A DNA stretch of 64,000 bases from Patescibacteria group bacterium (lineage in GTDB: Bacteria; Patescibacteriota; Patescibacteriia; Patescibacteriales; UBA12465). Positions 1 through 57,392 of the stretch are shown one piece after another (the first letter of the stretch is position 1; each line of letters begins with the position of its first letter). The translations under genes and the position numbers were made by a program. The stretch spans positions 22,350-86,349 of the forward strand of contig JBMOHF010000003.1 in NCBI GenBank assembly GCA_049317985.1, written 5' to 3'. The notes under the pieces are model-generated. The model made no database searches. It was not told the DNA's origin and saw nothing but the letters and a program-made list of their open reading frames with translations.

Positions 1-183
1 GTAAAAGCTTAAAATCTTCTCTTGGTATCCTAATAAAACATATGAAAAACAAAAAGAAAAAGGAAAAACCTGCCGCTAAAAAAATTGGCAAGAAAGGACT
101 TCTATCGATTGGGGCTACACTTGCATCAATTATCCCAACTTTTACCCCAGGGAAACCGTGGCTCTAAAAAGCATCAGAAAATT

Positions 184-1587
184 ATGAAAAAATTTTTTCA
201 AATCATACTTAAAAAGATTGATGACAATTTGATAAAACCAAAAAGCCTTAAAGAAGAGCCGAGAAGAAAGGAATTTATTTTAAATATTTTATTAATTTCT
301 TCTGAAATATTAATGTCTGCTATTTTGATCTTGTCTTTCATCCGAGAAGTAATTGATTTGATTGCCGGAGAAGACCGCGGTTTTGAACCCGCGGTCTTTG
401 TTGTTATGGGGTTTGTCTTTGTTGTTGCCCATTATCTATCTCGACACCAGAAAATAAAGACCGCCTCTTTGATCTTCTTGGCAATCTTTTTTATTCCTAA
501 TTTATATCTTTCCTATCATTGGGGAATCGATTTACCCCAAAGTCTTTTGCTCTATGCCTTCACGATTCTTGCTTCTGGAATCTTAATTAGCACTCGATTT
601 TCACTCTTTGTCACCGCTTTTATTAGTATCTATCTTGGGACGCTGGGATATTTGCAGGGGCACGGAATAATCGTGCCAAATACTTATTGGACTTTGGAAA
701 TGACAACTATTTATGACGCAGTGCCAATAATAATTACTCTTTCTATTATGGCGACAATTTCTTGGCTTGCTAATCGGGAAATTGAAAATTCCCTCTTTCG
801 CGCTCTCCAGTCTGAAAAATCTCTGCAAATTGAAAGAGATAATTTAGAAATCACGGTTGAGAAAAGAACTAATGAATTACAGAGGATGCAAATGGATAAA
901 ATTAGCCAACTTTATCGCTTCGCAGAATTCGGACGAATTTCTTCGGGTATTTTTCATGACCTAATTAATCCTCTAACCGCAGTCTCTCTAAATCTTGAAC
1001 AACTTTCCAAAGATCATCGCTACAATGAAACTTCAACCCAAGTTGAACAGGCGGTAATGGCAGCGAAGAGGATGGAGACATTAGTTGTTAGTGTCAAAAA
1101 ACAATTGCAAAAAGAGGAGTGTCGGCGCTTATTTTCCTTGAATCAGGAGATCAAATCGATGTTTGATTTAATGGCTTATCGCGCTTTAAAAACAAACACT
1201 AATCTTAAATTCCGCTATCAAGAAGAAATAATAATATTTGGCGATCCTTTAAAATTTAGCCAAATAATTATGAATTTGATGGCAAATTCCTTGGATGCAC
1301 TGGAGGGAATGGAAAAAGAAGAAAAGGAAATCAGAATTAACCTGAGCAAGAAAAACGAAAGTGAAATGCGCATAATTACTAAAGATAATGGTCCAGGAAT
1401 CAAAGAAGAAGTAATCAAAAAAATATTTGAACCATTTTTTAGCACCAAAAAAGAGAAGGGCCTGGGACTGGGATTATCATCGATTAAACATCTTATAGAA
1501 AAAGACTTCAAAGGAACAATTTATGTAAAAAATTTACCAAGCGATGGTTGCGAGTTTGTAATTTCTCTACCAATAACCAAAGAATAA
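184..1587 (+). CDS. Sensor histidine kinase (multi-pass membrane N-terminus, HisKA + HATPase_c core)
   Basis: ORF 85..1587 (TTG) trimmed to first ATG at 184. H-box SSGIFHDLINPLTAV, N-box IIMNLMANSLDAL, G1 DNGPGI, G2 GLGLGLS. Several hydrophobic helices precede the H-box. No response regulator adjacent in window. Confidence 0.85.
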   Translation: MKKFFQIILKKIDDNLIKPKSLKEEPRRKEFILNILLISSEILMSAILILSFIREVIDLIAGEDRGFEPAVFVVMGFVFVVAHYLSRHQKIKTASLIFLAIFFIPNLYLSYHWGIDLPQSLLLYAFTILASGILISTRFSLFVTAFISIYLGTLGYLQGHGIIVPNTYWTLEMTTIYDAVPIIITLSIMATISWLANREIENSLFRALQSEKSLQIERDNLEITVEKRTNELQRMQMDKISQLYRFAEFGRISSGIFHDLINPLTAVSLNLEQLSKDHRYNETSTQVEQAVMAAKRMETLVVSVKKQLQKEECRRLFSLNQEIKSMFDLMAYRALKTNTNLKFRYQEEIIIFGDPLKFSQIIMNLMANSLDALEGMEKEEKEIRINLSKKNESEMRIITKDNGPGIKEEVIKKIFEPFFSTKKEKGLGLGLSSIKHLIEKDFKGTIYVKNLPSDGCEFVISLPITKE

Positions 1588-1594
1588 AAAAAAT

Positions 1595-2428
1595 ATGACT
1601 AGTCAAAAAACCTTTGCTCGAATTCTAAACAGCCCTGAGGGCCTCGCCTCTGTTGAGATTGTTAGTACCCTAGAAAAATCCTGGCAAGACAAAAAGGCAT
1701 TTTCTCCCTTATCAAAAGCTGAAAAAGAATCTTGGAAACAGGCTAATTTAAAGCTCTGGGCTTCCTACACTATTTATGACCACATTATGGATGGAGGCAC
1801 TAGTTTAGCTGAACTTCCTACCGCTAATCTTTTATTATTTGAAAGCGCCAAAATTCTTGGTGGAAAGAGCCAGTTAGCCGACGAAGCTTTTTTGCTAATG
1901 GAAACGGCTAACCAAAGAGAATTTTTGCGGGTTGGCGAACTAAAGAAGGATAAAAGTTATTGGCAAAAACTTAATGAAGACTCCCTCTTGAAAAATGGCC
2001 ACCAAAAATCTTTGGGACTATATATCTCCGTTTTCATATTTTTAGAAAGTCGCGGCGTAACTTTAATAGAGCAAAAAAAGTTTAGAGATTTCTTTATACA
2101 TTTTCTTAACTGCCGCCAACTTGCTGATGACTTGTATGATTGGCGCGATGATTTGAAAGATAATATTCCAACTGCAGTCACTGTTAATCTAATGAAAAAA
2201 TTCGGAAAGAAAAAATATAATCTCTCCGACTTAGAGGTAGAAGTTTTCATCAATCTTTATCCACATTTTCACAATTATTTAATTAAAACTCTAAATTTAG
2301 CAAGCGCAAGCGCAAAAAAGATATCGGTATTAGAAAAGAATAATTTTCTTGCTTCTTGGGCCGAGACAGCGCTCGAGGAAGAAGAAAAACGATGGCAAGA
2401 TTATCAAAAATTACTTAGGGATACGTAA
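1595..2428 (+). CDS. Hypothetical helical protein with two Asp-rich motifs (isoprenoid/phytoene-synthase-like fold suspected)
   Basis: 277-aa ORF 8 nt after the kinase stop. Motifs YDHIMD (aa 61-66) and QLADDLYDWRDDL (aa 175-187). Product assignment is weak. Confidence 0.55.
   Translation: MTSQKTFARILNSPEGLASVEIVSTLEKSWQDKKAFSPLSKAEKESWKQANLKLWASYTIYDHIMDGGTSLAELPTANLLLFESAKILGGKSQLADEAFLLMETANQREFLRVGELKKDKSYWQKLNEDSLLKNGHQKSLGLYISVFIFLESRGVTLIEQKKFRDFFIHFLNCRQLADDLYDWRDDLKDNIPTAVTVNLMKKFGKKKYNLSDLEVEVFINLYPHFHNYLIKTLNLASASAKKISVLEKNNFLASWAETALEEEEKRWQDYQKLLRDT
2381..2428 (+). repeat. Copy A of duplicated gene 3' end (functional end of ORF 1595..2428)
   Basis: gaagaaaaacgatggcaagattatca matches 3602..3628 at 25 of 26 aligned positions plus a 1-nt indel. 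Encodes ..EKRWQDYQKLLRDT*. Confidence 0.75.
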
Positions 2429-2462
2429 AAAGCGTGATGTCTAAAATATATACATATTCTGT

Positions 2463-2491
2463 TTGACTTTTACACACAGGTGCACTATAAT
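2463..2491 (+). promoter_or_regulatory. Sigma70-type promoter of the TA cassette (TTGACT-17 nt-TATAAT)
   Basis: TTGACT 2463..2468, 17-nt spacer, TATAAT 2486..2491. ATG at 2500 is only 8 nt after the -10 and has no SD, so the mRNA is probably leaderless. Confidence 0.6.
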
Positions 2492-2499
2492 TTTAGTAT

Positions 2500-3189
2500 A
2501 TGACTAAAGACTATTACAAATTCATCAAGGAGCTGCGCTTAAAAAGAGGCCTTTCTCAACTCGAAACTGCCGAAAAAATTGGGATTTCCCGCTCCTCCTA
2601 TATTGGCTTTGAACAAGGCAAAAATGAGCTGAGCTTACTTGAAGCGATAAAACTATCGGATCTTTTTGGCATTTCCCTAGAAGAAATGCGTGGTGGCCTA
2701 AAACCGAACTACGCAAAATACAAGCAAATGATTTTAGCCTATTTGCGATCAGGGAAAGGCGCTGATGGGAAAATACCAAAAACCAAGCTAGCAAAAATGC
2801 TCTACCTGGCTGATTTCGCTTGGTTCTATGAACACCTGGAAAGTATGAGCGGAATGCCTTATCGAAAAATTCAATATGGTCCAGTGCCAGATAATTATTT
2901 CCGCGCTATTGATGAGCTTTTTGAAGCAGGAATTATTGAAATAGACAAAACCACAAGAGACGGCGTCTTTTTTATTTCCCAAACTCGCTCTGGCGAACGG
3001 GAAAAATTGTCAGAACTCAATGCATCAGAACAAAAAATGATCAAAGATATCTCCGCGAAATGGCAGGGGAAAAGAACTCAAGATATTGTGAAATTTACTC
3101 ACGACCAACTACCATATTCTATTTGCGAAGAGAATGAAATAATCCCCTACAGCCTAATAACTCAAGAGGACCCAAGCCATGTTTATTAA
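2500..3189 (+). CDS. Antitoxin: N-terminal XRE-type HTH fused to Panacea (DUF4065/SocA-like) domain
   Basis: HTH: LRLKRGLSQLETAEKIGISRSSYIGFEQGKNELSLLEAIKLSDLFGISLEEM. C-terminal KTKLAKMLYLADFAWFYEHLESMSGMPYRKIQYGPVPDNY matches the Panacea/GepA-like pattern as I recall it. Confidence 0.8.
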   Translation: MTKDYYKFIKELRLKRGLSQLETAEKIGISRSSYIGFEQGKNELSLLEAIKLSDLFGISLEEMRGGLKPNYAKYKQMILAYLRSGKGADGKIPKTKLAKMLYLADFAWFYEHLESMSGMPYRKIQYGPVPDNYFRAIDELFEAGIIEIDKTTRDGVFFISQTRSGEREKLSELNASEQKMIKDISAKWQGKRTQDIVKFTHDQLPYSICEENEIIPYSLITQEDPSHVY

Positions 3190-3571
3190 ATATTCAGTAA
3201 ACATCGAGGAATACGCCCATCGCCACTTCATCAAAAAATTTTCCAAAAAATATGGCCGAGCCTGGGATATTACAATAGAAGCTCTCGTTAGAGAGTTTCA
3301 AAGTTTTGATATTATTTTGGAAAAATCTATTGCCGAGATAATTGTAAAAGATTTCGATGTTAAGATTATAAAAACTGAGTTTAGCGTCGCTGGGACAAAA
3401 ACATCTCGCCACGGCTCCGGCAACCGCTGTATCGTTGCCATGCATGACGATCAAAAATTGATCAATGTTTTATTGGTTTACCACAAAAATGATTTAGAGG
3501 GCAGCAATGAAACGGCTAGATGGAAACAAATAATTAAAGAAAATTACCAAAATTATTGCCATTTACTTTAA
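3179..3571 (+). CDS. Putative toxin partner (RelE/ParE-superfamily-like)
   Basis: 130-aa ORF overlapping the antitoxin stop by 11 nt. FIKKFSKKY..W N-terminal helix and GNRCIVAMHDDQKLINVLLVYHKND resemble the RelE/HigB-like G-x-R-hydrophobic core strand followed by a basic/His motif. Confidence 0.6.
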   Translation: MFIKYSVNIEEYAHRHFIKKFSKKYGRAWDITIEALVREFQSFDIILEKSIAEIIVKDFDVKIIKTEFSVAGTKTSRHGSGNRCIVAMHDDQKLINVLLVYHKNDLEGSNETARWKQIIKENYQNYCHLL

Positions 3572-3601
3572 CCACTTCCTGATTAAAAGAAACCCCCCAA
3601 A

Positions 3602-3662
3602 GAAGAAAAAACGCTGGCAAGATTATCAGTTATTATTAGCCAATACTAAAAATCCCGCCTAA
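3602..3662 (+). repeat. Copy B of duplicated gene 3' end (orphaned relic ending inside the terminator)
   Basis: gaagaaaaaacgctggcaagattatca. Relic frame reads KKKKRWQDYQLLLANTKNPA* with TAA at 3660..3662. Compare RWQDYQKLL in copy A. Confidence 0.7.
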
Positions 3663-3676
3663 AAGCGGGATTTTTT
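3648..3676. terminator. Bidirectional intrinsic terminator
   Basis: tcccgc (3653..3658) / gcggga (3665..3670) hairpin flanked by an A-run and a T-run. Lies between the convergent TA cassette and argS. Confidence 0.8.
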
Positions 3677-3698
3677 ATCAATTACAATATACTCCTTA

Positions 3699-5396
3699 TT
3701 ACATCTTCTCTAAAGTTTCAATCCCTAAAATATTTAAAGATTTTCCTAAAACAATCGTGAAGGCCTCAACCAACTTCAAGCGGAGGTTTGTGTTGCTAGA
3801 ATTAGCGACCGGGCAAGAATGATAAAACTCATTAAAAATTTGCGCTAACTCAAAAGCATAGTGCGCTACTAAAGATGGATTACGATTTTCTCCGGCAAAA
3901 ATAAGTAGTTCCGGAAAGCCAGCAATTTTTTGAATCAGGGCGAACTCGGCATCTTCTAAATTGGCTGTGTCACGAAAATCACCTTCAGTTTCTGATACTT
4001 TTACCAGAATGGAATTGGCACGGGCAAATGAATAGAGAAGATATGGGCCAGTGTCGCCATCGAAACTCAAAGATTCTTTTGGATCAAAAACCATGTCTTT
4101 AAAAACATTAGTCTTGAGTAATTTATATTTAATTGCCGCGAGAGCAATTTTCAGGGCACGAGTGGCGGCTTCGGCTGGATCAATGTCGCTGGTTCTTTCA
4201 ATAATTCCCTCTTTTGCTAAATCAGTTAATTCCCAAATTAAATTATCAGCATCAACAACCGTTCCTTCGCGTGACTTCATCCGCCCTTCGGGTAAAGAAA
4301 TCATCCCGTAAGAAAGATGACTAATTTTTTTGGCAAAACCCATCTTCTTCAAAATAATCGCCAAAACCTTAAAATGATAATCTTGTTCGTTGCCGACGAT
4401 ATAAATTGAATCATCATAGTTATAATCAGCGTCCTTTAAAAAAGCCAGATATAAATCCTGAGTCATATAGACACTGGTACCGTCGGCGCGCAGTAGAACT
4501 TTTTCGTCCAAACCATCGGCGGTCAGGTCAAGAATGATCGCCCCATCTTCACGTTTAGAAAAAACTCCGTCGGACAAATTTTTTAAAACCAAGTCCTTTC
4601 CCTGCTGATAGATTTCGCTTTCAAAATAATTTTTATCATGTTTGATTCCAACAAGCTCAAAAGTTTCCTTAAAACCCTCGAAGGCCCAATTATTCATTTT
4701 CTGCCAAAGGTTTCTGGTTTCCGGATCGCCATTTTCCCATTTCAATAGTAGCTCCTGAGTTTCCTTCTCGAGATTCTCGTCATTTTTGGCGAGGGAGGAA
4801 AATTTTACATAGTAATCACCAACAAAATGATCGGACTTTTTGTCCGGCTCAGCATTCTTGCCTTCTTTTTGATAGGCAATCATCGATTTGCAAATATGAA
4901 TACCGCGATCATTAAAAAGATTAGTGCGAACTACTTTTTCCCCGTTCGCTTCCAAAAGACGGGCTAATGATTCGCCGATTGATAAGTTGCGGAGATGACC
5001 AAGGTGCAAGGGTTTATTGGTGTTTGGCGATGGATATTCAATGACAATTGTTTTGCTGTTCGTTGGTGCATTACCAAATTTTTCACATTTGTCTAAAACA
5101 TCATCCAAAACAGAAATCGCAAAAGACGCACGATCCAGAAAGAGATTGAGGTAAGGACCAACCGCTTCAGCGTTCTGGATAATATTATGACCAGACATTA
5201 AATTCGCAAGCTTTTCGGCAATCACGGCCGGAGGAAGAGCAAGATCTTTGGATAAGACAAAACAAGGGAAAGCAAAATCACCCAAGTCTCTCGTTGGCGG
5301 AACTTCGATTTTTACTAGCAGATCAGAGGCTGAGACCGTCTGACCACTCAATTCTTTCACTTTTTCAGCCAATAACTTGGCGATTTTGCTTTTCAT
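3699..5396 (-). CDS. argS: Arginine--tRNA ligase
   Basis: 565 aa. HIGH-type PLHLGHLRN, KMSKS-type MKSREG, typical C-terminal DALR-like anticodon-binding region. Confidence 0.95.
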   Translation of the reverse strand: MKSKIAKLLAEKVKELSGQTVSASDLLVKIEVPPTRDLGDFAFPCFVLSKDLALPPAVIAEKLANLMSGHNIIQNAEAVGPYLNLFLDRASFAISVLDDVLDKCEKFGNAPTNSKTIVIEYPSPNTNKPLHLGHLRNLSIGESLARLLEANGEKVVRTNLFNDRGIHICKSMIAYQKEGKNAEPDKKSDHFVGDYYVKFSSLAKNDENLEKETQELLLKWENGDPETRNLWQKMNNWAFEGFKETFELVGIKHDKNYFESEIYQQGKDLVLKNLSDGVFSKREDGAIILDLTADGLDEKVLLRADGTSVYMTQDLYLAFLKDADYNYDDSIYIVGNEQDYHFKVLAIILKKMGFAKKISHLSYGMISLPEGRMKSREGTVVDADNLIWELTDLAKEGIIERTSDIDPAEAATRALKIALAAIKYKLLKTNVFKDMVFDPKESLSFDGDTGPYLLYSFARANSILVKVSETEGDFRDTANLEDAEFALIQKIAGFPELLIFAGENRNPSLVAHYAFELAQIFNEFYHSCPVANSSNTNLRLKLVEAFTIVLGKSLNILGIETLEKM

Positions 5397-5438
5397 ATTT
5401 GCTTATTTTGCCATTAATACTTAAGGAAATCAAGACTA

Positions 5439-5468
5439 TTAACAATTATAGCATAAAAATGCTATAAT
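5439..5468 (+). promoter_or_regulatory. Promoter (TTAACA-18 nt-TGcTATAAT) 6 nt upstream of ATG
   Basis: TATAAT 5463..5468 with upstream TG. ATG at 5475, no SD, so the transcript is probably leaderless. Confidence 0.45.
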
Positions 5469-5474
5469 ATACTT

Positions 5475-5846
5475 ATGAAACAATACGAAGAGGCTGCGGA
5501 CGGCCTGCAAAAAAAACTTGATTTCCCTGAACACCCAAGAAAAATTGACTGGGAAACGTATCTTGATGACTTGGAAGAAAAGATAAGAGAGGAGGACGCG
5601 ATTTACGCGACTACCCACCGTGAAGAATGGGATAAACAAGAAGCACTCCAAAAAGTTAGGGACGAGATTTCAGAAGTAAAAGAAACTACTGGTGTGTCAG
5701 TTGAGTTAGATGAAAATGGTCGACACATCAATGACGAGACCGCTTTTCATAAACAGGCGAAAGAAATAAAAGAAAAAACAAAAACAAAAGAAAAACTGTC
5801 GAAGCTAAGTCGGAACAAAGCCTGGTGGAGGTCAATGGCCAAATAA
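5475..5846 (+). CDS. Hypothetical charged (Glu/Lys-rich) protein
   Basis: 123-aa ORF with its own promoter-like signal. No recognisable motif. Confidence 0.5.
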   Translation: MKQYEEAADGLQKKLDFPEHPRKIDWETYLDDLEEKIREEDAIYATTHREEWDKQEALQKVRDEISEVKETTGVSVELDENGRHINDETAFHKQAKEIKEKTKTKEKLSKLSRNKAWWRSMAK

Positions 5847-5889
5847 AGCAGATTATAGACAAAATACAAAAAACGATATATTATATAAA

Positions 5890-6080
5890 CATCCAAAAGC
5901 GATTGCTATAGCCACCAACTATAGGTCATTCCTCAATAACTATTGAGCTAAGCGAATAGGATAAACCAAGATGCTCGAGCTTCGTCTCGAGAAACTGGGT
6001 GGAACCGCGAGACAAAAATAAGTCCCGTCCCAGTAAAAACAGTTTTTCTGTTTTTACTAGGAGGGGATTTTTTTATTAAT
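5890..6080 (+). promoter_or_regulatory. T-box riboswitch leader (Thr-specific) with intrinsic terminator, controlling thrS
   Basis: T-box sequence aaactGGGTGGaACCGCGag at 5992..6012. It is preceded by a Stem III hairpin ctcgag-cttcgt-ctcgag (5974..5991). ACC followed by A sits in hairpin loop 5912..5918. Long terminator stem plus T-run at about 6023..6077. Candidate promoter TAGACA-17-TATTAT at 5856..5884. Confidence 0.8.
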
Positions 6081-6101
6081 AAGAATTAATTTATAAAATA
6101 T

Positions 6102-7847
6102 ATGAAAGAAGAAGCTAACATCGAAATGAAGCGTCACAGCTTGTCTCATATTATGGCGGGGGCAATCAAAGAACTTTGGCCAGATGCCAAACTCGCAATT
6201 GGCCCAGCTATTGAGAATGGTTTTTATTATGATATCGATTTCGGTGATGTTAAAATCACAGAAGCTGATTTAAAAATCATTGAGAAAAAAATGGCTTTTT
6301 TAATCAAACAAAATCTCAAATTTGAGAAAGAAGAGAAAGATGTTGACCAAGCATTAGCCGAAGAAACTAAATCTGGTGAAATCTACAAGGCCGAATTAAT
6401 TGCCGGTATTAAAGAAAACGGCGAAAAAACTGTTAGTTTTTACACCGTTGGAAAATTTACCGATCTTTGTCGTGGACCACACCTGGAAAATACTAACCAA
6501 CTGCAACCTGGTTCCTATAAATTAAACAAATTGGCCGGTGCCTATTGGCGCGGTGATGAAAATAATAAAATGCTAACCCGCATCTACGGATTGGCTTTTA
6601 ACACCAAAGAAGAACTAACTGCTTATGACCAAATGATGTCGGAGGCAGAAAAAAGGGATCATCGAAAACTGGGAAAAGAATTGGATCTTTTCATGACTCA
6701 TGAATATGCCCCTGGGATGCCTTTCTTCTTGCCAAAGGGGATGATTATTCTTCAGGAACTAACAAAATTTGTGCGGTCTGAGTCATACGGTGATGGTTAT
6801 CAAGAAGTTCGTACTCCACAATTATTTAATGATGAACTCTGGAAAACATCTGGGCATTGGGGTCACTACCAGGAAGATATGTTCTGTCTTCACCATGCGG
6901 ATGACGACACTGATATGGCAATTAAACCGATGAATTGCCCAGCGCACATGTTGATTTTTAAGCGGGATATTCATTCATACAAAGAATTACCCCTTCGCAT
7001 TGCGGAAACTACAACTTTGCACCGCAACGAAAAATCTGGTACCCTCCATGGCCTCACCCGCGTTCGTAGCCTTTCTCAGGACGATTCCCATATTTTTGCT
7101 CGCCCCGAACAAATTCTTCAGGAAATTTCTATTCTTTTGGAAAAGACTAAAAGAATTTACCAAGTTTTTGGTTTGGCGATTGATGAGATTCATCTTTCCA
7201 CTCGCCCAGAAAAATTTCTTGGCGAACGGGCGGTCTGGGATGACGCAGAAGCAAGCTTGAAACAAGCCCTGGAGGATGCGGGCTTAAAATACCAAATCAA
7301 TGAGGGAGATGGTGCTTTCTATGGACCAAAAATCGATGTCAAAGTTAAAGATGCGATTGGACGACAATGGCAATTAGCAACGATCCAATTGGATTATCAA
7401 TTGCCAATTCGTTTTGATTTGAACTATATCGACAATGACGGTCAAGAGAAACGCCCCGTGGTTTTGCACCGTGCCCTTCTTGGATCGATGGAAAGGTTTA
7501 TGGGGATTATTATTGAACACTACACCGGAGCCTTCCCGGTCTGGCTCGCCCCGATGCAAGTAAAAATTGTTTCCGTGGCCGAAGCTCATGTCGCACACTG
7601 CAAAAAGTTAGCCAAAGAGTTAAGGGCGGCAGGTATTCGTGTGGAAATCGATGAAGCGAATGAAACGGTTGGTAATAAAATCCGGAAGGCTGCTAATGAA
7701 AAAGTTCCCTATATGCTAGTAATTGGCGATAAAGAAATGGAATCTGAAAAACTGACCGTCAGAGACCGCGGAAGCAAAGACACCCGCGAGATTAATAAAG
7801 AAGAATTCTTTACAGAGATTAAAGAGAAGATTGAGAATTATTTGTAA
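6102..7847 (+). CDS. thrS: Threonine--tRNA ligase (lacks N-terminal TGS domain)
   Basis: 581 aa. Begins at editing-domain motif HSLSHIMAGAIKELWPDAKLAIGPAIENGFYYD. Class II core and C-terminal anticodon-binding domain present. Confidence 0.95.
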   Translation: MKEEANIEMKRHSLSHIMAGAIKELWPDAKLAIGPAIENGFYYDIDFGDVKITEADLKIIEKKMAFLIKQNLKFEKEEKDVDQALAEETKSGEIYKAELIAGIKENGEKTVSFYTVGKFTDLCRGPHLENTNQLQPGSYKLNKLAGAYWRGDENNKMLTRIYGLAFNTKEELTAYDQMMSEAEKRDHRKLGKELDLFMTHEYAPGMPFFLPKGMIILQELTKFVRSESYGDGYQEVRTPQLFNDELWKTSGHWGHYQEDMFCLHHADDDTDMAIKPMNCPAHMLIFKRDIHSYKELPLRIAETTTLHRNEKSGTLHGLTRVRSLSQDDSHIFARPEQILQEISILLEKTKRIYQVFGLAIDEIHLSTRPEKFLGERAVWDDAEASLKQALEDAGLKYQINEGDGAFYGPKIDVKVKDAIGRQWQLATIQLDYQLPIRFDLNYIDNDGQEKRPVVLHRALLGSMERFMGIIIEHYTGAFPVWLAPMQVKIVSVAEAHVAHCKKLAKELRAAGIRVEIDEANETVGNKIRKAANEKVPYMLVIGDKEMESEKLTVRDRGSKDTREINKEEFFTEIKEKIENYL

Positions 7848-7869
7848 TTTTCTTGAGGAAGTGATGCAC

Positions 7870-7903
7870 AAAAAAACTTTCACCAAATGGTGAAAGTTTT
7901 TTT
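7870..7903 (+). terminator. Intrinsic terminator after thrS
   Basis: ctttcacc / ggtgaaag hairpin (7877..7896) followed by a 7-T run. Confidence 0.85.
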
Positions 7904-7925
7904 AATACTAAACAATTTAAATTTT

Positions 7926-7974
7926 AAAAACAAAAAACCCGAGGCACTTAGAATAATCTAAATAAGCTCGGGTT
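7926..7974 (-). terminator. Intrinsic terminator of the minus-strand giant-gene/lipoprotein unit
   Basis: aacccgag / ctcgggtt stem (7936..7974) with an imperfect inner stem. On the minus strand it is followed by ttttttgttttt. Confidence 0.55.
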
Positions 7975-8010
7975 CAAATCGCATCTAATGCTATCATTTC
8001 TTTCCTTTCT

Positions 8011-8049: not shown

Positions 8050-8562
8050 TTACTTTTTTTCGGAGACATAAAATTTTTCTCCACCGGGTAAAATTACTAA
8101 TTTTAGTCTTGGCCAACCAGTCCAGTCATAGTTGCTGAAACCAATGTCACCTAAGTTCACATTTACAACGTGGTCAGTGGTGTCAACATCCGTAAAGTTT
8201 ACCGATTTAACTACACGACCAGAATAAATACTGCCATTTTCACGATAACTGACTTCAACTAATATTTCATATGTTTTACCTATTAACGAATCTGCAGAAT
8301 GTGGTAAAACAAAGGAAAAATTCAACCAGGTTGCGTCTGCACCAAAAATACTATGAGCATCAATATTTTCTCCCTGTCGATGGTCAACTAATGCAATGTA
8401 AAATCCGGTTACTAAATCGGGACTAGGAAAATCTATTGTACCAGTAATTTTGATAGTGTTTTCAATTGGTGGAGGATCAGGTGGCTTGACGATTGGATCG
8501 TCTTTTTTGCAGGAGGATAATAATCCTACTACTGCAAATACGAAAAAAAATATTTTTTTCAT
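8050..8562 (-). CDS. Lipoprotein of unknown function
   Basis: 170 aa. Signal peptide with lipobox MKKIFFFVFAVVGLLSS-C. Pro-rich linker, then a beta-rich domain. Confidence 0.75.
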   Translation of the reverse strand: MKKIFFFVFAVVGLLSSCKKDDPIVKPPDPPPIENTIKITGTIDFPSPDLVTGFYIALVDHRQGENIDAHSIFGADATWLNFSFVLPHSADSLIGKTYEILVEVSYRENGSIYSGRVVKSVNFTDVDTTDHVVNVNLGDIGFSNYDWTGWPRLKLVILPGGEKFYVSEKK

Positions 8563-8639: not shown

Positions 8640-11600
8640 TTAATCGGTCGTGAAATAACTGTCAGGAACATTGTCTGGAAATGTTTTCCAGAGACCCCAA
8701 TTATCAGTTACTTTGATCTTTATTTCCCTTTTTGTTGCTCCCGCTCCGGCGCTATAGCTGTAATTATGAGATATTGCGTGTGGTGCATTTGCGGCTGGAT
8801 GGTTATCTTGAGTATTAATTACTGATACTTGATCATCACCCCAGTTGATAATAATATTACCAAGCGGCTGTTGTTCTTTATCCACAATACTATTGAATTT
8901 GAGAGTGTAATACCCAGGAGCAATAGTCCATTCGCCGATAGTTGGGTTGGAGGCAGTTAAAGCCGCTCCAGTGCCGTTTCCTCTAAAAAGGCTGACATTG
9001 CTTATTTTTGGCATAATTGCACAAAAATCCGAGTCAGAAAAGTTGCTTACACCAAAATCGCTATTGGCATTTGGACGAGAATTCTGATTGCTACATAATT
9101 TTAACTGGTAAACGCCCTCAAATAAATCGGTACTCGTTGAATGAGAGTCATAAGCTATTCTTTTAATGGGATTATCGGGTATATAATTGCCACCATTTAG
9201 AAGAAAACCTTTGGTTGCGTCTAAAAATATATTCTTCAAAGTATTTTTTTGGTTACTACCAGTTTTGGACTCATCCTCATTCTTAAAGCCATATGAAACG
9301 CAGGGACCATCTACGCCGCTTCCAGCACAAGTAGCGGTTGTCCCGCCGCTGTTTCCGGACATAACGCAATTAATTTCCGGCTTATTTTTACAATATCCAA
9401 TAAATTGACAGGAATTTGTACTTTTAGTAACACCACCAACAATAACGTTATCAGAACAACCATATGGACGTCCAGCGAGGGGGCTTTTTTCTCCACTATT
9501 TGAATTGTTGTTGAACATCGTGCCGAATTTAATAGCAGCTTTGCCAGCAACTGATACAGTGTTAAATAATGATGCTGCGCCATATGGAGCAGTTATACCA
9601 CTAACAACTTGACCAAAACTACTAGAAGCTAGATTGAAATAAGGAACAGTGGAATAACCAAATTCGCTGATGATTGGGAAAAAGTTTGGTGAAGTGGAGG
9701 TTGGATAAACGCCTTCACTAAAGATTCTTTCCATCCATGGTTTACCAATGCCGTTACTATCAACGACCTCCACAAACTTGTTACAAGTCGGGGTAAAAAT
9801 ATCTTCAGGATCAATACCTGCCCCACTATTTATATACCATAATCCAGCGGTAGGATTATTATAATCATAGACGCGAACGGCGCTTTCATTACCAGCTAAC
9901 CCATCGTACTTATACCAACCAGCAGAATAAACGTCGACTCCTGATGTAATTCCATAATCACCATGGCTTTGAGAGCCCCATCTTGGACCTTGATAAAAAC
10001 CACCATCAACTGGCACTATTTTTACGTTTGACACAGCTCCGTTCCCCGTAAATTCCAACCTCGCGGTGGTGTTTGCATTTATTACATATCTGGTCCCCCC
10101 CCAACTTGGCTGAAATCTCATACCATGACTCCCAGCATTAATAACCACGGCAACTTTCATGTTTCCTGTATCAGGCACACAAAGAGAAAAAGTTTCACAG
10201 TGGTCCATTTCAGTATTTTCATCATCATCAAAACTATATTGATAAAAGAATTGATTGTAATTTGGGAGACAATCACCTTGCCCAGCAAAACCAGTTGGGA
10301 TATAGTCATCACTATCTCCCTGACATCCTATATCCCCCGTCGTGTCAGTCTGTTGGCGATAAGGACCACCATTACCTGTGATTCTATTCTCCACCAAATC
10401 AAACTGCGCGTTCGCTTCGGCACAATAATATAAAGGATACGTTCCACCCCTGCCAGCATAACTGGTTTTTTTAGTATTTAAGCTTGATGAAAGAATGTTG
10501 TCTAATGGTAACCATTGTAAACAAACACCCGGGTTAAGCGGATCGTGTTGCAAACAATAACCTTCCCAGCCATTTTTTACAACGCTCTGATCACGGCTCG
10601 AACAGGTCAAGCTATTGCTATCCTCTGTTGGATATAAGCGACATTCCTTTGCCAAATAATTACCTTCATCGCCGGAATGGTTATTAATTTCCAAAACTGG
10701 TTCAATTTTAATGTCATCGTAATAAACTGTACCACCAAAATCATCGCCTAATGCTTGGGACGTCCCAAAAACAATAGCGACCTTATTTTTCTGAACATTA
10801 ATTTTATGAACAACGCGTTGCCAGCCTTTTGTGGTATCTTTAAATACCTGCAAAGGAGTTCCGAGATAAGATTTGTCATCTACTATCTTCACCATCGCTT
10901 GTGGGCCAGACAATCCATCGGTATTAACTAAATAACTTATGTAATAGTTTATTCCTGGTATTAAATTTACTCCCGATTTCCCCAGCATTTTACCAGATTT
11001 AATACCAACAAAAACTTTTCCTTCGGCCGGATAAGACATACTTGGTAAAACTGATGAAGGTTCGTCAGCCAACGTGTAGTCTTGAGGTCCGACATTAGCC
11101 GTGGAAGTTGCTACGCCGCCTGAGGAAAATATCTTTAAATCGAAAGAAACGTCGTTGTCCTCAAAATTAATCGCCTTAAAATCACTAGTCGCCCCAACCT
11201 CTTTCATGTTGGCGATATTGTAGGCATTCAACAAGCTATAACCCGTCGCATTTTTATCCTGTGCGTAATTGAAAACATGAGTCGAAGTAGCACTACCGAC
11301 AAAGTTGCCGCAACCACCACCTTCGGTCAATTTATCGCATTCATTCAAACCATAGCAAGTTTCCGTGCCAGTTTTTTCATCCATCACAGCTGTAGTGCAA
11401 GAAAGCCAGCGACTACAAACTCGATTCGGCGAAACTTTCACCACCATATTGGCATTGCAGCTATTGCCAGAACAACTCGTGGCCAAGCCAGACCCAGTGG
11501 TGCTCGCAAAAGCATTATAACTCAAAGACGAAACTTGTCCCTGAATACCATTATAGGCGCGATTATTAAACAGGACACAACCATTATCAAAATCTACTTT

Positions 11601-14600
11601 TGAGTTACAAGTTTTGAGATCTACCTTATCTTCTTTTTGATACTCAACAACTGCTTCTCGAACCTCTAAAGATGCTGCACGAGCCTGGTTGAGGGTTTTA
11701 CTAGATATTCGACAAACAGAATCATATTTAAGGATAATATTAACTCCCTGGTTATTTTTTAATTCTACGGATTGGACTGAAGTAGTGGAAATATTGTTGT
11801 GAGAATCCAAAACATTAATGACTGGAGTTCCCGCAAAAGGTGTGCAACCCAAGGTATTGACTACCAATGAATTGGCCTGATCAACGCTTCTAACAATATA
11901 CAACTTTCTGGCCTTCAAATAGACATCTTGATAATAATCATTGACATTTTTTATCCACATATCCCCAATAACTCCATTTTTATCAATATCATCGAGGGTT
12001 GGATTCATCACCATATTTGGCGAAACAGCACTCGTTGCATCAATATATTCCGAGCAACCAGAGGCAGCAGTTTCGCACAAGCCTGCGTCCTTGGATGGTT
12101 GAGGAGCGCCCGCTCCAGTGTTTCCAATGGTCTTGAAATAGGAAATATCACAAGGGCGATCAGTTGTGTCGAGAGCGCAAGTTGCAGCGTGACAATCCGC
12201 ATCACTGGCACAAACAGCATTAACATCATTAAAGCCACCACCTAATAGACTTTTACATCTCTTTACTGGCTCTTTGAACCAACCCATCGCTTGGCTATTA
12301 ACATTACTGCTCGCTCGATAGCGACAAGTATTGTCACCTGGATTACGGAAGAAAGACTTTCCATTTTTACTATCAAAGAAAGTTTCACAACCTACCGCCG
12401 AGGACTGGCAGAGAGTGCCATTTGCGCCTTCGTAGTTATCCGGATTATTGATCAAGAAAACATCCGAGAAGAAAACACTAGTACCAAATTTTTTACCTTC
12501 TCCCAGTCGGCTACAGCCGATATCAGCCACTGAACATTCTTTTTCTGGGTTAAAAATGGCATAAACCATTTTGTCGCTTAAAACATTAATAGTGCTACTC
12601 GCGAAAGACTGAGCAAAAGGAGATTTTGAATTTCTGGTATCAATCATCGCCTCACAACCAGCCGACGACTCATCACAAAGACTACTAAACTGACGCAAAT
12701 TATGTTGTGTGCCATATGGATCCTGATAGGCACTGCAACCGAGATTGTATTCTGGCCCACGATAATCGCTATTTAAATCATAGTAACAGCTATCATCGGT
12801 AACCCAAGAATCTTTGATCAAATAATAACGATCAGTGACTTCAGTCACGACCAGGGAGTCAAGATAAATTTCGGAATTAGCCGCTACCACAAATTTTTCA
12901 CCCGCTTCAACTCGATGATTAAGGGCCGGCAAACTTACTTGATAAACTTTCCACTCAGCATCATCGATGTTCACGGAATCAGCACCAACTACGCCGCTAT
13001 TAAAATTAGCAACTTCGGTGCCGCTCGCATTTTCAAAATAGAATTTCAAGTTGGCATTTGGATCGGTTGCCTTCGCCAAGAATTTCAAATAGTAAGCGGA
13101 GTTTCTTGTTACATTCCCGATCATTCCAGAGGTAGGCGTTGAGGCAACACCAGTTAATTTAAGAGATTTTCCGTTTTTGTTGATTGAGATTGAGCTGGTT
13201 GCCGCTGCGCCACTAAAAGGATTGCTGTTTGATTCAAAATCATAAGTAGCAATATTATTAATATTATTACCATTACTGCCATTGTATTCTCGGCAGCCTC
13301 TCTCTGCTTCACCGCAAGCACTACTTTGACTTGGTAGAGCCCTAAAAACACAAGTTGAGCTGGCAACTTCACCGCCGTTACCGGTACATTCAGTTGGAGT
13401 GACGGTCTCATCTAAACGTAATTTGCGACAATCTGGGGTACAAGAAATTGTTTTTGAATATAGATGATAAGAAACGCCTCCGGTTTTATTGTAGAACTGT
13501 CGACAATCGGGATTGTAGTCTGGGTGACCGGCTGGCAATTTGAAAATTGCTTCACTACATTCGTTAGAATCAGAACTATATACTTTTGGTGAAAGATTGG
13601 CACCGGAGCTAGTCGCAACTAAGTTAAAGGACTTCAACTGATAACCACTCTCATCCTCACTACTCCAAGAATAGAAGACGCCACAAGTATTGTCTGGCTG
13701 GATACAACGACGCAAAGCCGAATAATATTCATTACTTTCTCCACCCTGGGTAACACTATCGAGATTGGTAAAACGAGAACAACCAGCTGAGGAGGCTGTG
13801 CAATTAGTTGCTGTTTTTGGAATAAAATAACTTGTTGAAATGTCCTGGAAATTGGTCTTACGTTGAACATAAGAATCATAACCAACACAAACATCTGGAC
13901 AGTATTCATCGAAATTAACTTTGGCAGTTAACTTGAAGTCGTCAGCCATTGAAGAGAAGGTTTGGCAACCAACTTCATCCTTATTACAAAGGCGAGCGAA
14001 ATTGTTGCAAATATCTGGAGCATTGTCTTTTAGGCGATAATCCTTTACCCCGGCAGAAAATGGATTTTTATAACATAGACCAGAAAGATACTCTGGAATT
14101 AATTTCTCTTGGGTAACAACCGGCTTATCGTTAACACTTGAGTCGCCATAATTAGACCAAGCAAAACCTGGCTCACCTGCGCCTCGATTATTTGCTTCCA
14201 ATTTAATTTTACGGAGATAAAAAGCGCCCGAGCTAACAATGGAAAAATCTAGTGAACTAATACCATCACTTGGCTTAGCGGTCAAAGAAATTGCTTGCCA
14301 AGAACCATTGTTGGCGACGGATTTGGTGACTGAATCCGGTGCACCGATCGTTAAAGTAGTAGTTCCGTTTGCGGCGTAGACTTCAGCACTCAAAGTGTAG
14401 TAATAGCCATCGATAACAGAACTATTTTCCGGGATAACAGAGAAATTTGAATCAGAAAACAAAGTTGAATTAGCAGTGAAACCAAGAACCTTCCCAGTTC
14501 CTGAGCCACTAACCACCGCATTTTCGGTAGTAACGACCGCAGAACCGGCAACTTGCCAGTGATTATTTAAGATACCCGCGGTGGAAGTTGAACCAACTGG

Positions 14601-21726: not shown

Positions 21727-22893
21727 ATGGAAAAAAATTCAAAACAATTACTCGAAGGTTCAAGGGCAATCGCCTTAACCATTGCCAATATTCAACCGGT
21801 AGTGGTGAGCGCCTACCCGATCACTCCACAAACTCATATTGTGGAAGATTTAGCGACTCTTTACGCGAGCGGAAAATCTAGCTTTGAATACGTTCGCGCT
21901 GAGAGTGAGTTTTCAGCTGCATCAATTGTGATGGGTGCCAGCGCAGCTGGTGCAAGAACTTATAGCGCAACTAGCGGTCAAGGACTGCTACTGATGAATG
22001 AAGTTGTCTATTGTATTGCCGGCTTACGTCTTCCGGTTGTGATGACTGACGCGAATCGCGCAATTTCAGCACCAATTAATATTTGGAATGACCAAAGTGA
22101 TATCATGACCATTCGCGATGCAGGGTGGTTACAATTTTTTGCGGAAAACCACCAAGAAGCAGTCGACCAGCATATTCTGGCTTATAAGATCGCCGAAAAA
22201 CACCGCTTACCAGCGATGGTTAATGTTGATGGTTTTATTATTACACATTTATTTGAGCCGGTCATAATTCCGAGCGTGGCCTTAATTAAAAAATTTCTGC
22301 CAAAAAGACCAGTGAACAAAGGCGAAGTTCTTGATCCAAAAAATCCGAGCACGCTTGGTGAATTTTATGGACCAGAATATTATTTTGAGGCCAGACAGAA
22401 ACTTCACGAAGACTTGGTTGCCAGTATCAGAGATATAAATAGTGAATACAAAATATTTCAAAAGATTTTCGGCAGAAAAAATACCGAAGCGAGAATTGAT
22501 AATGGATTACTAGAATATTGTGGACCAAAAAAACCAAAAATAGTCGTCGTGGCGATGGGATCAATTATTGGCACAATTAAAGAAGTGCAAAAAGACAAAA
22601 AATATCAAGATGTGGGAATTTTGAAAATAAAGTGTTTCCGTCCCTTCCCACATCAGGAAATCCGAGAAGTTTTAAAAAATGCAAAACAAATTGCGGTCCT
22701 GGAAAAATCGAGTGGTAGTGGTAGTTTTTCTCCTTTATACTTAGAGATCTGCGCAGCACTACATAACGAAAAAATAATTATCAACAATTTTGTGGCTGGT
22801 CTTGGCGGAAGAGATATTAGCCGAGCGATTATTAAAAAAATGCTTACTTTAATTAACGCCAAAAATAAAAAACCAATTTTCCTTGGAAAATAA
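21727..22893 (+). CDS. porA: 2-oxoacid:ferredoxin oxidoreductase, alpha subunit
   Basis: 388 aa. LEGSRAIALTIANIQPVVVSAYPITPQT N-terminal signature. Confidence 0.9.
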   Translation: MEKNSKQLLEGSRAIALTIANIQPVVVSAYPITPQTHIVEDLATLYASGKSSFEYVRAESEFSAASIVMGASAAGARTYSATSGQGLLLMNEVVYCIAGLRLPVVMTDANRAISAPINIWNDQSDIMTIRDAGWLQFFAENHQEAVDQHILAYKIAEKHRLPAMVNVDGFIITHLFEPVIIPSVALIKKFLPKRPVNKGEVLDPKNPSTLGEFYGPEYYFEARQKLHEDLVASIRDINSEYKIFQKIFGRKNTEARIDNGLLEYCGPKKPKIVVVAMGSIIGTIKEVQKDKKYQDVGILKIKCFRPFPHQEIREVLKNAKQIAVLEKSSGSGSFSPLYLEICAALHNEKIIINNFVAGLGGRDISRAIIKKMLTLINAKNKKPIFLGK

Positions 22894-57319: not shown

Positions 57320-57392
57320 GGGCCCTTAGCTCATCTGGTAGAGCACCTGCTTTGCAAGCAGGGGGTGGCAGGTTCGAGTCCTGTAGGGTCCA
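57320..57392 (+). tRNA. tRNA-Ala (anticodon UGC), no encoded CCA
   Basis: Full cloverleaf folded by hand. Acceptor GGGCCCT/AGGGTCC with G3:U70. D-stem GCTC/GAGC. Anticodon arm CCTGC-TTTGCAA-GCAGG. T-arm GCAGG-TTCGAGT-CCTGT. 73 nt. Confidence 0.93.

Follow-up and report, generated by a model that had tools for sequence, protein, structure and literature searches.

How chromosomal toxin–antitoxin modules move when they are not carried by a mobile element is an old question, and it is raised again by a locus of a Patescibacteria group bacterium, in which a toxin–antitoxin cassette of about 1.1 kb lies between two copies of the 3′ end of a resident gene. The DNA analyzed is a 64,000-nt stretch (positions 22,350–86,349 of contig JBMOHF010000003.1, GenBank assembly GCA_049317985.1), referred to here as the window, and positions given without a contig name are those of the window. 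A preliminary description of the locus proposed that the cassette was inserted at the 3′ end of the resident gene, thereby duplicating the tail of the gene and displacing it from its terminator. Empty versions of the site in related genomes and the C-termini of the resident-protein orthologs support this proposal. The features concerned are listed below.

1595–2428, plus strand: resident gene, an open reading frame (ORF) of 277 amino acids (aa), the last 17–30 codons or so of which are copy A
2378–2436, plus strand: copy A, the core of the duplicated gene tail, delimited by alignment with empty sites; the similarity may start near 2347
2437–3572, plus strand: inserted unit of about 1,136 nt with a putative operator, promoter, antitoxin gene and toxin gene, without a terminator of its own
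3573–3659, plus strand: copy B, the original tail of the gene, displaced and no longer coding (core 3599–3659, with a weaker match back to the toxin stop)
3648–3675, both strands: intrinsic bidirectional terminator whose 11-bp stem, closed by the loop CUAAAA, stands between an A-run and a T-run
3699–5396, minus strand: convergent gene for arginyl-tRNA synthetase (ArgRS; Pfam tRNA-synt_1d, DALR_1 and Arg_tRNA_synt_N), syntenic in related contigs

Related contigs and cassette-bearing loci that were compared with the window are denoted by L-numbers. The empty site that the proposal called for was found in relatives: in L002, L003 and the outgroup L004–L007, the resident gene runs straight into the terminator (...caagattaccaaaaaatactcgccgaaacaaaaaatcccgcTTAAtagcgggatttttt), the same hairpin lies immediately 3′ of the gene, and the gap between the resident gene and ArgRS is 26 nt (L002, L003) or 46 nt (L004–L007). 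In these sites the terminator takes its left arm from the final four codons of the resident gene, K-N-P-A, and has the stop codon of the gene in its loop. Most of the orthologs terminate in ...RWQDYQK(I/V/L)LA(E/D/K)(T/I)KNPA, and these C-termini match copy B (KKRWQDYQLLLANTKNPA before the stop), not copy A (...KLLRDT before the stop). The cassette was observed at the same position in two further lineages, one comprising L001, L010, L011 and L015 and the other L012, L013, L014 and L016. The left junction ATGTCTAAAATATA is common to the window, L001 and L013, the filled lineages keep the same order of gene tail and then ATGTCTAAAATATAGACA, and in L013 a remnant of copy B follows immediately after the toxin stop. 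The resident protein of the window genome shared 75–78% identity with those of the filled lineages, 70.6–71.5% with those of the empty lineages and 61.7% with that of the outgroup. Since the window genome is closer to the filled than to the empty lineages, and the alternative requires several precise losses, these data show that a single insertion took place in the common ancestor of the window genome and its two sister lineages, and that the change was a gain and not a loss.

The alternative would be that the cassette was ancestral at the site and was deleted from the empty genomes when the two tail copies recombined with each other. Such repeat-mediated deletion is easy and leaves exactly one tail, but the outgroup (62% identical) and the sister clade L002, L003 and L008 are all single-tailed, an addictive module would have had to be lost precisely and independently at least two or three times, and in all of the empty sites the KNPA codons double as the terminator stem, an integrated arrangement and not a scar. 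We therefore consider ancestral presence very improbable. The insertion hit the final codons of the resident gene, immediately before the terminator that this gene and the convergent ArgRS gene have in common. The insertion was duplicative, its two joints being staggered by about 60–90 nt so that the gene tail now stands on both sides of the unit. Checked against the empty sites, the target-site duplication amounts to 60–90 nt; the target duplications usual for insertion sequences are 2–14 bp.

The repeat on which the proposal had been based was present as described, with 2381–2406 (gaagaaaaacgatggcaagattatca) recurring at 3602–3628 (gaagaaaaaacgctggcaagattatca) with one mismatch and one extra A. 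Self-comparison extended it without gaps to 46 nt at 74% identity (2385–2430 vs 3607–3652), gapped local alignment paired 2364–2431 with 3588–3652 at a score of 29, and the similarity of the two copies spans at least 60 nt (2378–2436 vs 3599–3659). A chance A-rich match or an assembly artifact would be the simplest alternative, and one part of the repeat core, GAAGAAAAA, is indeed of low complexity and occurs six times in the window. However, this is the sole such part; the 14-mer core TGGCAAGATTATCA occurs in the 64-kb window at 2393 and 3615 only, so that the repeat is not a common low-complexity motif. A score of 29 was reached by 1 of 3000 mismatched pairs (the upstream flank of one locus aligned to the downstream flank of another), and none of 99 shifted placements in the window locus exceeded 20.5. 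Furthermore, the reading of copy B is that of the ortholog C-termini, and the same architecture was found in NCBI, Logan, ENA and JGI assemblies, a recurrence across independent assemblies indicating that it is not an assembly artifact. A chance match or artifact is thus effectively refuted.

The two copies have had different fates. As claimed, the ORF at 1595–2428 terminates in copy A with ...EKRWQDYQKLLRDT before the stop, and the frame of copy B, open from 3573 to 3662, reads HFLIKRNPPKKKKRWQDYQLLLANTKNPA and ends at a TAA (3660–3662) in the loop of the hairpin (stem 3648–3658/3665–3675, dG −15.1 kcal/mol, z −4.4). Copy B retains the ancestral reading ...RWQDYQLLLANTKNPA before the stop. 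The duplication probably covers about 90 nt starting directly after the toxin stop, where a weak similarity to the gene (cacttcctg vs gcttcttgg) begins both in the window and in L013. At its other end, copy A extends into the former A-run of the left arm of the terminator, which places the right edge of the duplication inside that arm. The copy A tail of L013, read from the DNA as ...LLASAKNQRV before the stop, still carries aaaaatc, the start of the terminator arm, ahead of the cassette; the duplicated stretch therefore began within the gene and extended as far as the left hairpin arm. As judged from the alignment, the copy A stop (2426–2428) arose later, when the AAA codon for the K of the ancestral ...TKNPA became TAA. 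The K-N-P-A tail is conserved in empty sites and three different endings are observed in the cassette-bearing lineages, namely RDT (window), VTTLKL (L001) and ASAKNQRV (L013), each before the stop: copy A, released from its role in the terminator, has drifted separately in each lineage. The tail doubling as a terminator was located at 3648–3675 in the window, 5850–5880 in both L002 and L003, and 2495–2525 in L008. Copy A left the resident gene intact. The gene is now without a terminator and reads into the cassette promoter, and the terminator, which first served the resident gene and ArgRS, now serves the toxin–antitoxin operon and ArgRS. With repeat copies about 75% identical, the insertion event in the window is old.

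The inserted unit contains the following features.

2438–2454, plus strand: imperfect palindrome TGTCTA-N5-TATACA, at the left end of the unit
2463–2491, plus strand: sigma-70-type promoter TTGACT-17-TATAAT, matching 11 of 12 consensus positions
2500–3189, plus strand: PanA-type antitoxin of 229 aa, with an N-terminal XRE-type helix-turn-helix (HTH) and a SocA/Panacea domain
3179–3571, plus strand: toxin of 130 aa, predicted to have a RelE/ParE-superfamily fold

The consensus-like promoter and the two overlapping genes, which share 11 nt, were both borne out, as was the description of the genes as a toxin–antitoxin pair. The antitoxin matched the Pfam families HTH_3 (PF01381, E 6.5e-15) and SocA_Panacea (PF13274, E 4.8e-13, 50.4 bits against a cut-off of 25.7) in the 97–205-aa region for the latter. 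No Pfam, NCBIfam or PADLOC profile matched the toxin. Its AlphaFold model (pLDDT 80.6) resembled RelE, HigB2 and YoeB: in a Foldseek comparison to the PDB, RelE (1wmi) came first (E 3.8e-4, probability 1.00), followed by HigB2 and YoeB, but the TM-scores were modest (0.44 by query length, 0.61 by target length) and the identities of the top hits were 15–19%. From these profile and fold matches the pair is assigned to the PanA-type type II toxin–antitoxin systems, with a predicted RelE-fold toxin. PanAT systems with Panacea/DUF4065 antitoxins were described by Kurata et al. (2022), who observed an HTH in 343 PanA proteins (PMC8832971). The present system shares with them the Panacea domain behind an N-terminal HTH and the bicistronic, overlapping operon with a small toxin gene, but differs in that its toxin family is recognizable by predicted fold alone (RelE-like), without a profile match. 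On the strength of its domains and operon layout, it appears to be a new member of the known PanAT family.

The palindrome at 2438–2454 is probably an operator for the HTH domain of the antitoxin, and most of the approximately 80 cassettes listed have a conserved motif, ATGTCAA..TTATTAACA, ahead of their −35 element. In most loci the layout is the same, a palindrome followed by the −35 and −10 elements and then 7–9 nt to the ATG. Because the −10 element of the window ends 8 nt before the PanA ATG (2486–2502) and no Shine-Dalgarno sequence is present, the antitoxin mRNA is probably leaderless.

Scans by toxin alignment gave 254 genome loci and at least 308 metagenome loci, of which the best 80 of each were kept, and 572 close relatives of the toxin were found; at 50% clustering, the compact toxin family has 171 representatives among 1.84 billion proteins. 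The antitoxin–toxin pair was kept as a unit in 153 loci, duplicate contigs included, and the cassette occurs in more than 100 other genomic contexts. For the ends of the unit, cassettes whose flanks are unrelated were compared with one another (237 pairs from 63 loci, nucleotide identity of 78% or more). On the left, homology broke off at a median distance of 61 nt before the PanA ATG, with 119 of the 237 pairs in the 60–64-nt bin, and on the right at the toxin stop (median −2, mode 0–4). This comparison of aligned sequences shows the cassette as a discrete unit with sharp ends. The named sources of the toxin homologs were nearly all metagenome-assembled genomes of Patescibacteria. Some cassette contigs (L016, L020, L021, L029, L070 and others) are labelled Gammaproteobacteria, Saccharibacteria, Verrucomicrobiota, Pacearchaeota or Nanoarchaeota, and these could be mislabelled or mis-binned assemblies or represent real transfer beyond Patescibacteria. 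In L012 and L013, a second and different Panacea-type cassette, encoding an HTH plus SocA_Panacea antitoxin and a PemK toxin, was observed about 4 kb downstream (approximately 9296–10393, minus strand). About 8 of about 150 cassettes are near tRNA genes. A tRNA or known-RNA target was rejected for the window, as Rfam gave no match in 1–8000 and the sole window tRNA is at 57320.

Ends as sharp as these raise the possibility that an unlinked transposase or integrase, acting in trans, recognizes the ends of the cassette and makes widely staggered cuts of variable spacing in the target; the cassette would then be a non-autonomous element. The repeats abut the unit within 0–5 nt in the cleanest cases (window, L073 and L082), which also speaks for such an enzyme, and a precedent exists in IS1549/IS1634, which generate direct repeats of 8–514 bp (PMC2266710). 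Those elements resemble the present case in their long target duplications of variable length, but they encode a DDE transposase and have terminal inverted repeats, and the cassette unit has neither. In agreement with the preliminary description, no integrase or transposase was found in the cassette, and a Pfam scan of 35 window ORFs revealed none either. The two ends of the unit were not connected by any of the inverted repeats listed, the nearest match (12 nt, 2487–2498/3545–3556) being inside the unit and at chance level. No attachment core was shared across independent insertions, the repeats being locus-specific, and the inserted segments of L024, L046, L079, L119 and L148 contain 0–90 extra nt. 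Moreover, the unit ends coincide with functional limits (the operator edge and the stop codon), so that trimming under selection explains them equally well. Also considering an unrelated gene block that carries the same kind of duplication, described below, we regard a trans-acting enzyme as unlikely.

The signature recurs at other cassette loci. The 250–300 nt upstream of each cassette were aligned to an equal length downstream. Of the 77 true placements, 7 scored at least 27, a level attained by 0.33% of 5119 control placements shifted within these loci. At a score of at least 25, repeats of 26–173 nt were detected in 13 of 122 non-identical contexts, including L062 and L057, in which they are far from the unit ends. 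The flanking repeats differ in sequence and length at every locus: they correspond to the terminator after the upstream gene in L073, to intergenic DNA in L024 and L119, and to the 5′ end of the downstream gene in L046. Just two copies of the repeat were present within the locus DNA examined in the window, L073, L024, L046, L079, L119 and L148.

A second duplicative event was found at the site itself. Between the toxin and ArgRS genes, L015 has a 4.4-kb block of six genes (AAA_18, NUDIX, glycosyltransferase, dNK-like kinase, phosphoribosyltransferase and methyltransferase). The block is bracketed by a 107-nt direct repeat (5335–5441 vs 9799–9905, 105 of 107 nt identical) composed of the last 57 nt of the toxin gene, an 11-nt spacer and the last 37 nt of ArgRS; at this repeat, copy B and the terminator had already been lost in the L015 lineage. 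Since the toxin/ArgRS junction exists in the recipient lineage alone, the duplication must have been made from recipient DNA at insertion. That a duplication also flanks this unrelated six-gene block indicates that the process is not specific to the toxin–antitoxin unit. The interval between the resident gene and ArgRS varies in content among relatives, being empty or holding a Fic gene, an AAA_14/DUF4143 ATPase, the cassette, the cassette with the ATPase, or the cassette with the six-gene block. The ATPase gene (L008 2527–3960; L009 2976–4409; L012/L013 5453–6886) occupies two different positions relative to the terminator, and the Fic-domain gene was observed in the interval on the contig encoding P0009. 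No flanking duplication was detected at the ATPase insertions of L008 and L013, where scores were at chance level (14.5–16.5). Minimal mobile elements of Neisseria are hotspots between conserved genes, with alternative cargo that is exchanged by transformation and homologous recombination. The present interval resembles them in having conserved flanking genes and alternative cargo in relatives; the difference is that minimal mobile elements are not defined by target duplication, whereas the first insertion here duplicated its target.

As a whole, this information makes it fairly probable that the cassette, a discrete unit that moves horizontally, was acquired by a duplicative, recombinase-independent insertion that was then filtered by selection. 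Incoming DNA would be joined by the host at two staggered points, via illegitimate or short-homology joining, and selection in these very compact genomes would keep just those events that regenerate both neighbors. Because the stop codon of the resident gene lies inside a terminator shared with an essential gene, only duplication of the shared segment spares both neighbors, and selection would thus enrich for duplications. The installed cassette would then be hard to delete, since loss of the antitoxin would free the toxin. Joining by the host is favored by the lack of a shared core or of inverted repeats, by inserted-segment ends that vary by 0–90 nt between independent events, and by the recipient-derived duplication in L015; it is from these features that we infer how the two joints formed. 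The mechanism to which this bears a resemblance, as far as can be inferred, is microhomology joining, in which ectopic DNA is taken up independently of a recombinase via two microhomology joints at the replication fork. However, the events described for it are microindels, not kilobase insertions with 60–170-nt duplications.

Several observations weigh against insertion by host joining. Flanking repeats were found in just about 10% of contexts, and no empty site was recovered for any locus other than that of the window (in the case of L082, the homologs of the upstream gene lacked synteny and shared no more than 64% identity). At the window, the event is so old that junction microhomologies are no longer readable. 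The sharp unit ends could reflect an end-recognizing enzyme rather than functional trimming. In addition, four of the contexts with flanking repeats (L082, L100, L149 and L070) contain more than two copies of the repeat within the locus. Such dispersed repeats are explained equally well by recombination at repeats and by target duplication; the view that every flanking repeat is a target duplication was rejected on this ground. Finally, L100 and L102 carry 95%-identical cassettes in unrelated contexts, and both are bracketed by the same motif containing a ribosome-binding site, which shows that a repeat can travel with the cassette or act as a landing site.

These last cases bear on another explanation, in which a circle was integrated by a single crossover (Campbell type), the attachment site being a gene-tail or dispersed-repeat copy that the circle carried. 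The circle could be the remnant of a larger integrative element that has lost its integrase, or could have been excised between flanking repeats. Direct repeats of 30–180 nt that rebuild a gene 3′ end are typical of integrative islands. The window locus resembles such islands and prophages in having direct repeats of tens of bases, one copy of which rebuilds the resident gene, and a displaced tail at the far end, and cassettes lie between copies of dispersed repeats in L082, L100 and L149. The identical flanking motif of L100 and L102 in unrelated contexts is likewise consistent with a circle. In contrast to islands and prophages, however, no integrase and no attachment core common to the loci were found here, the insert is just 1.1 kb, and the repeats vary from locus to locus. 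The 107-nt repeat of L015 is a recipient-only junction and so could not have been imported by a circle. The short cassette contigs showed no terminal overlap that would indicate circular forms, and relatives of the toxin were absent from the IMG/VR viral contigs, INPHARED phages and PLSDB plasmids. Besides, a circle could spread the cassette between orthologous or repeat-bearing sites, but could not create the first duplication of a unique tail. We consider integration of a circle to be a rather improbable source of the locus.

Chromosomal integrons carry small, promoter-bearing toxin–antitoxin gene cassettes, and the units of L082 and L149, also small, promoter-bearing and placed between repeated elements, are similar to these. 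The differences are that no integron integrase was found among the window ORFs scanned, that no attC structure was seen in the 3′ flank, which was judged by inspection with no formal attC model run, and that the right-hand repeat of the window is a gene tail with a terminator. For the window an integron reading was rejected, as copy B was verified to be a gene tail in empty sites.

The dispersed repeats near some cassettes are of several kinds. A motif of about 30 nt, AATAAAAGATTTGGAGGGG, which contains a ribosome-binding site and stands before many genes, occurs in L017 at 1111, 2284, 2810, 4034, 5874, 7422 and 7866, and in L100 at 333, 1105 and 2261; it may be a portable recombination site. 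L017 also contains four copies of a 111-nt repeat (5383–5493, 7315–7425, 8153–8263 and 10008–10118), at least two of which (8153–8263 and 10008–10118) are the 3′ ends of paralogous 71-aa genes, and one of which directly follows the toxin stop as another gene-tail remnant beside a cassette. In L082, a near-perfect hairpin with an 18-bp stem, similar to a repetitive extragenic palindrome, occurs three times (4230–4268, 5400–5438 and 6224–6253). Two of these copies bracket the cassette, and the toxin ends in ...ELLNP instead of ...LL, its last two codons and stop being within the repeat.

Directly upstream of the resident gene, the window contains one further gene of the locus.

85–1587, plus strand: histidine kinase gene

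The resident gene is located 3′ of a histidine kinase gene in every contig examined, and a response-regulator gene precedes the kinase where the sequence reaches that far. The resident 277-aa protein had no Pfam or NCBIfam match; it is well conserved, including a DDLYDWRDD motif, and its orthologs are 287–294 aa in length. Elsewhere in the window, an ORF of 2,722 aa was observed at 8640–16808 on the minus strand, and a similar giant gene is present in L002 (product 2,669 aa).

Duplicated gene ends have precedents in integrase-driven islands, as have hotspots of alternative cargo in minimal mobile elements. Literature searches returned no description of the cassette or of duplicative toxin–antitoxin insertion; apparently undescribed are a recombinase-less, sharp-ended toxin–antitoxin unit of 1.1 kb in more than 100 contexts, the recurrent long, locus-specific repeats, and the second duplicative insertion at the site. 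It is possible, although we propose it only tentatively, that the PanA/RelE-like pair represents a novel type of Patescibacteria mobile unit that has no recombinase and would insert duplicatively beside gene ends and terminators, with duplications of 26–170 nt, through host replication and repair or through an unrecognized trans-acting enzyme.

For the movement of chromosomal toxin–antitoxin modules, the locus offers a clean case, with filled and empty versions of one site and a sharply bounded unit of 1.13 kb. Its value lies in the recurring long flanking duplication, for which no recombinase was found, and in a second, unrelated insertion with the same signature. The filled and empty versions, the sharp unit and the recurring signature make the question testable by experiment as well as by comparison of closely related Patescibacteria genomes. 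Dual coding, too, is put to a natural experiment at this locus, since the last four codons of the resident gene served as a terminator stem and were free to drift after the insertion split the two roles. If the proposed mobile unit is real, the same route would install larger cargo, such as the six-gene block with its 107-nt duplication, and long duplicative insertion would be a general route of gene gain that spares the neighboring genes in ultra-compact genomes.

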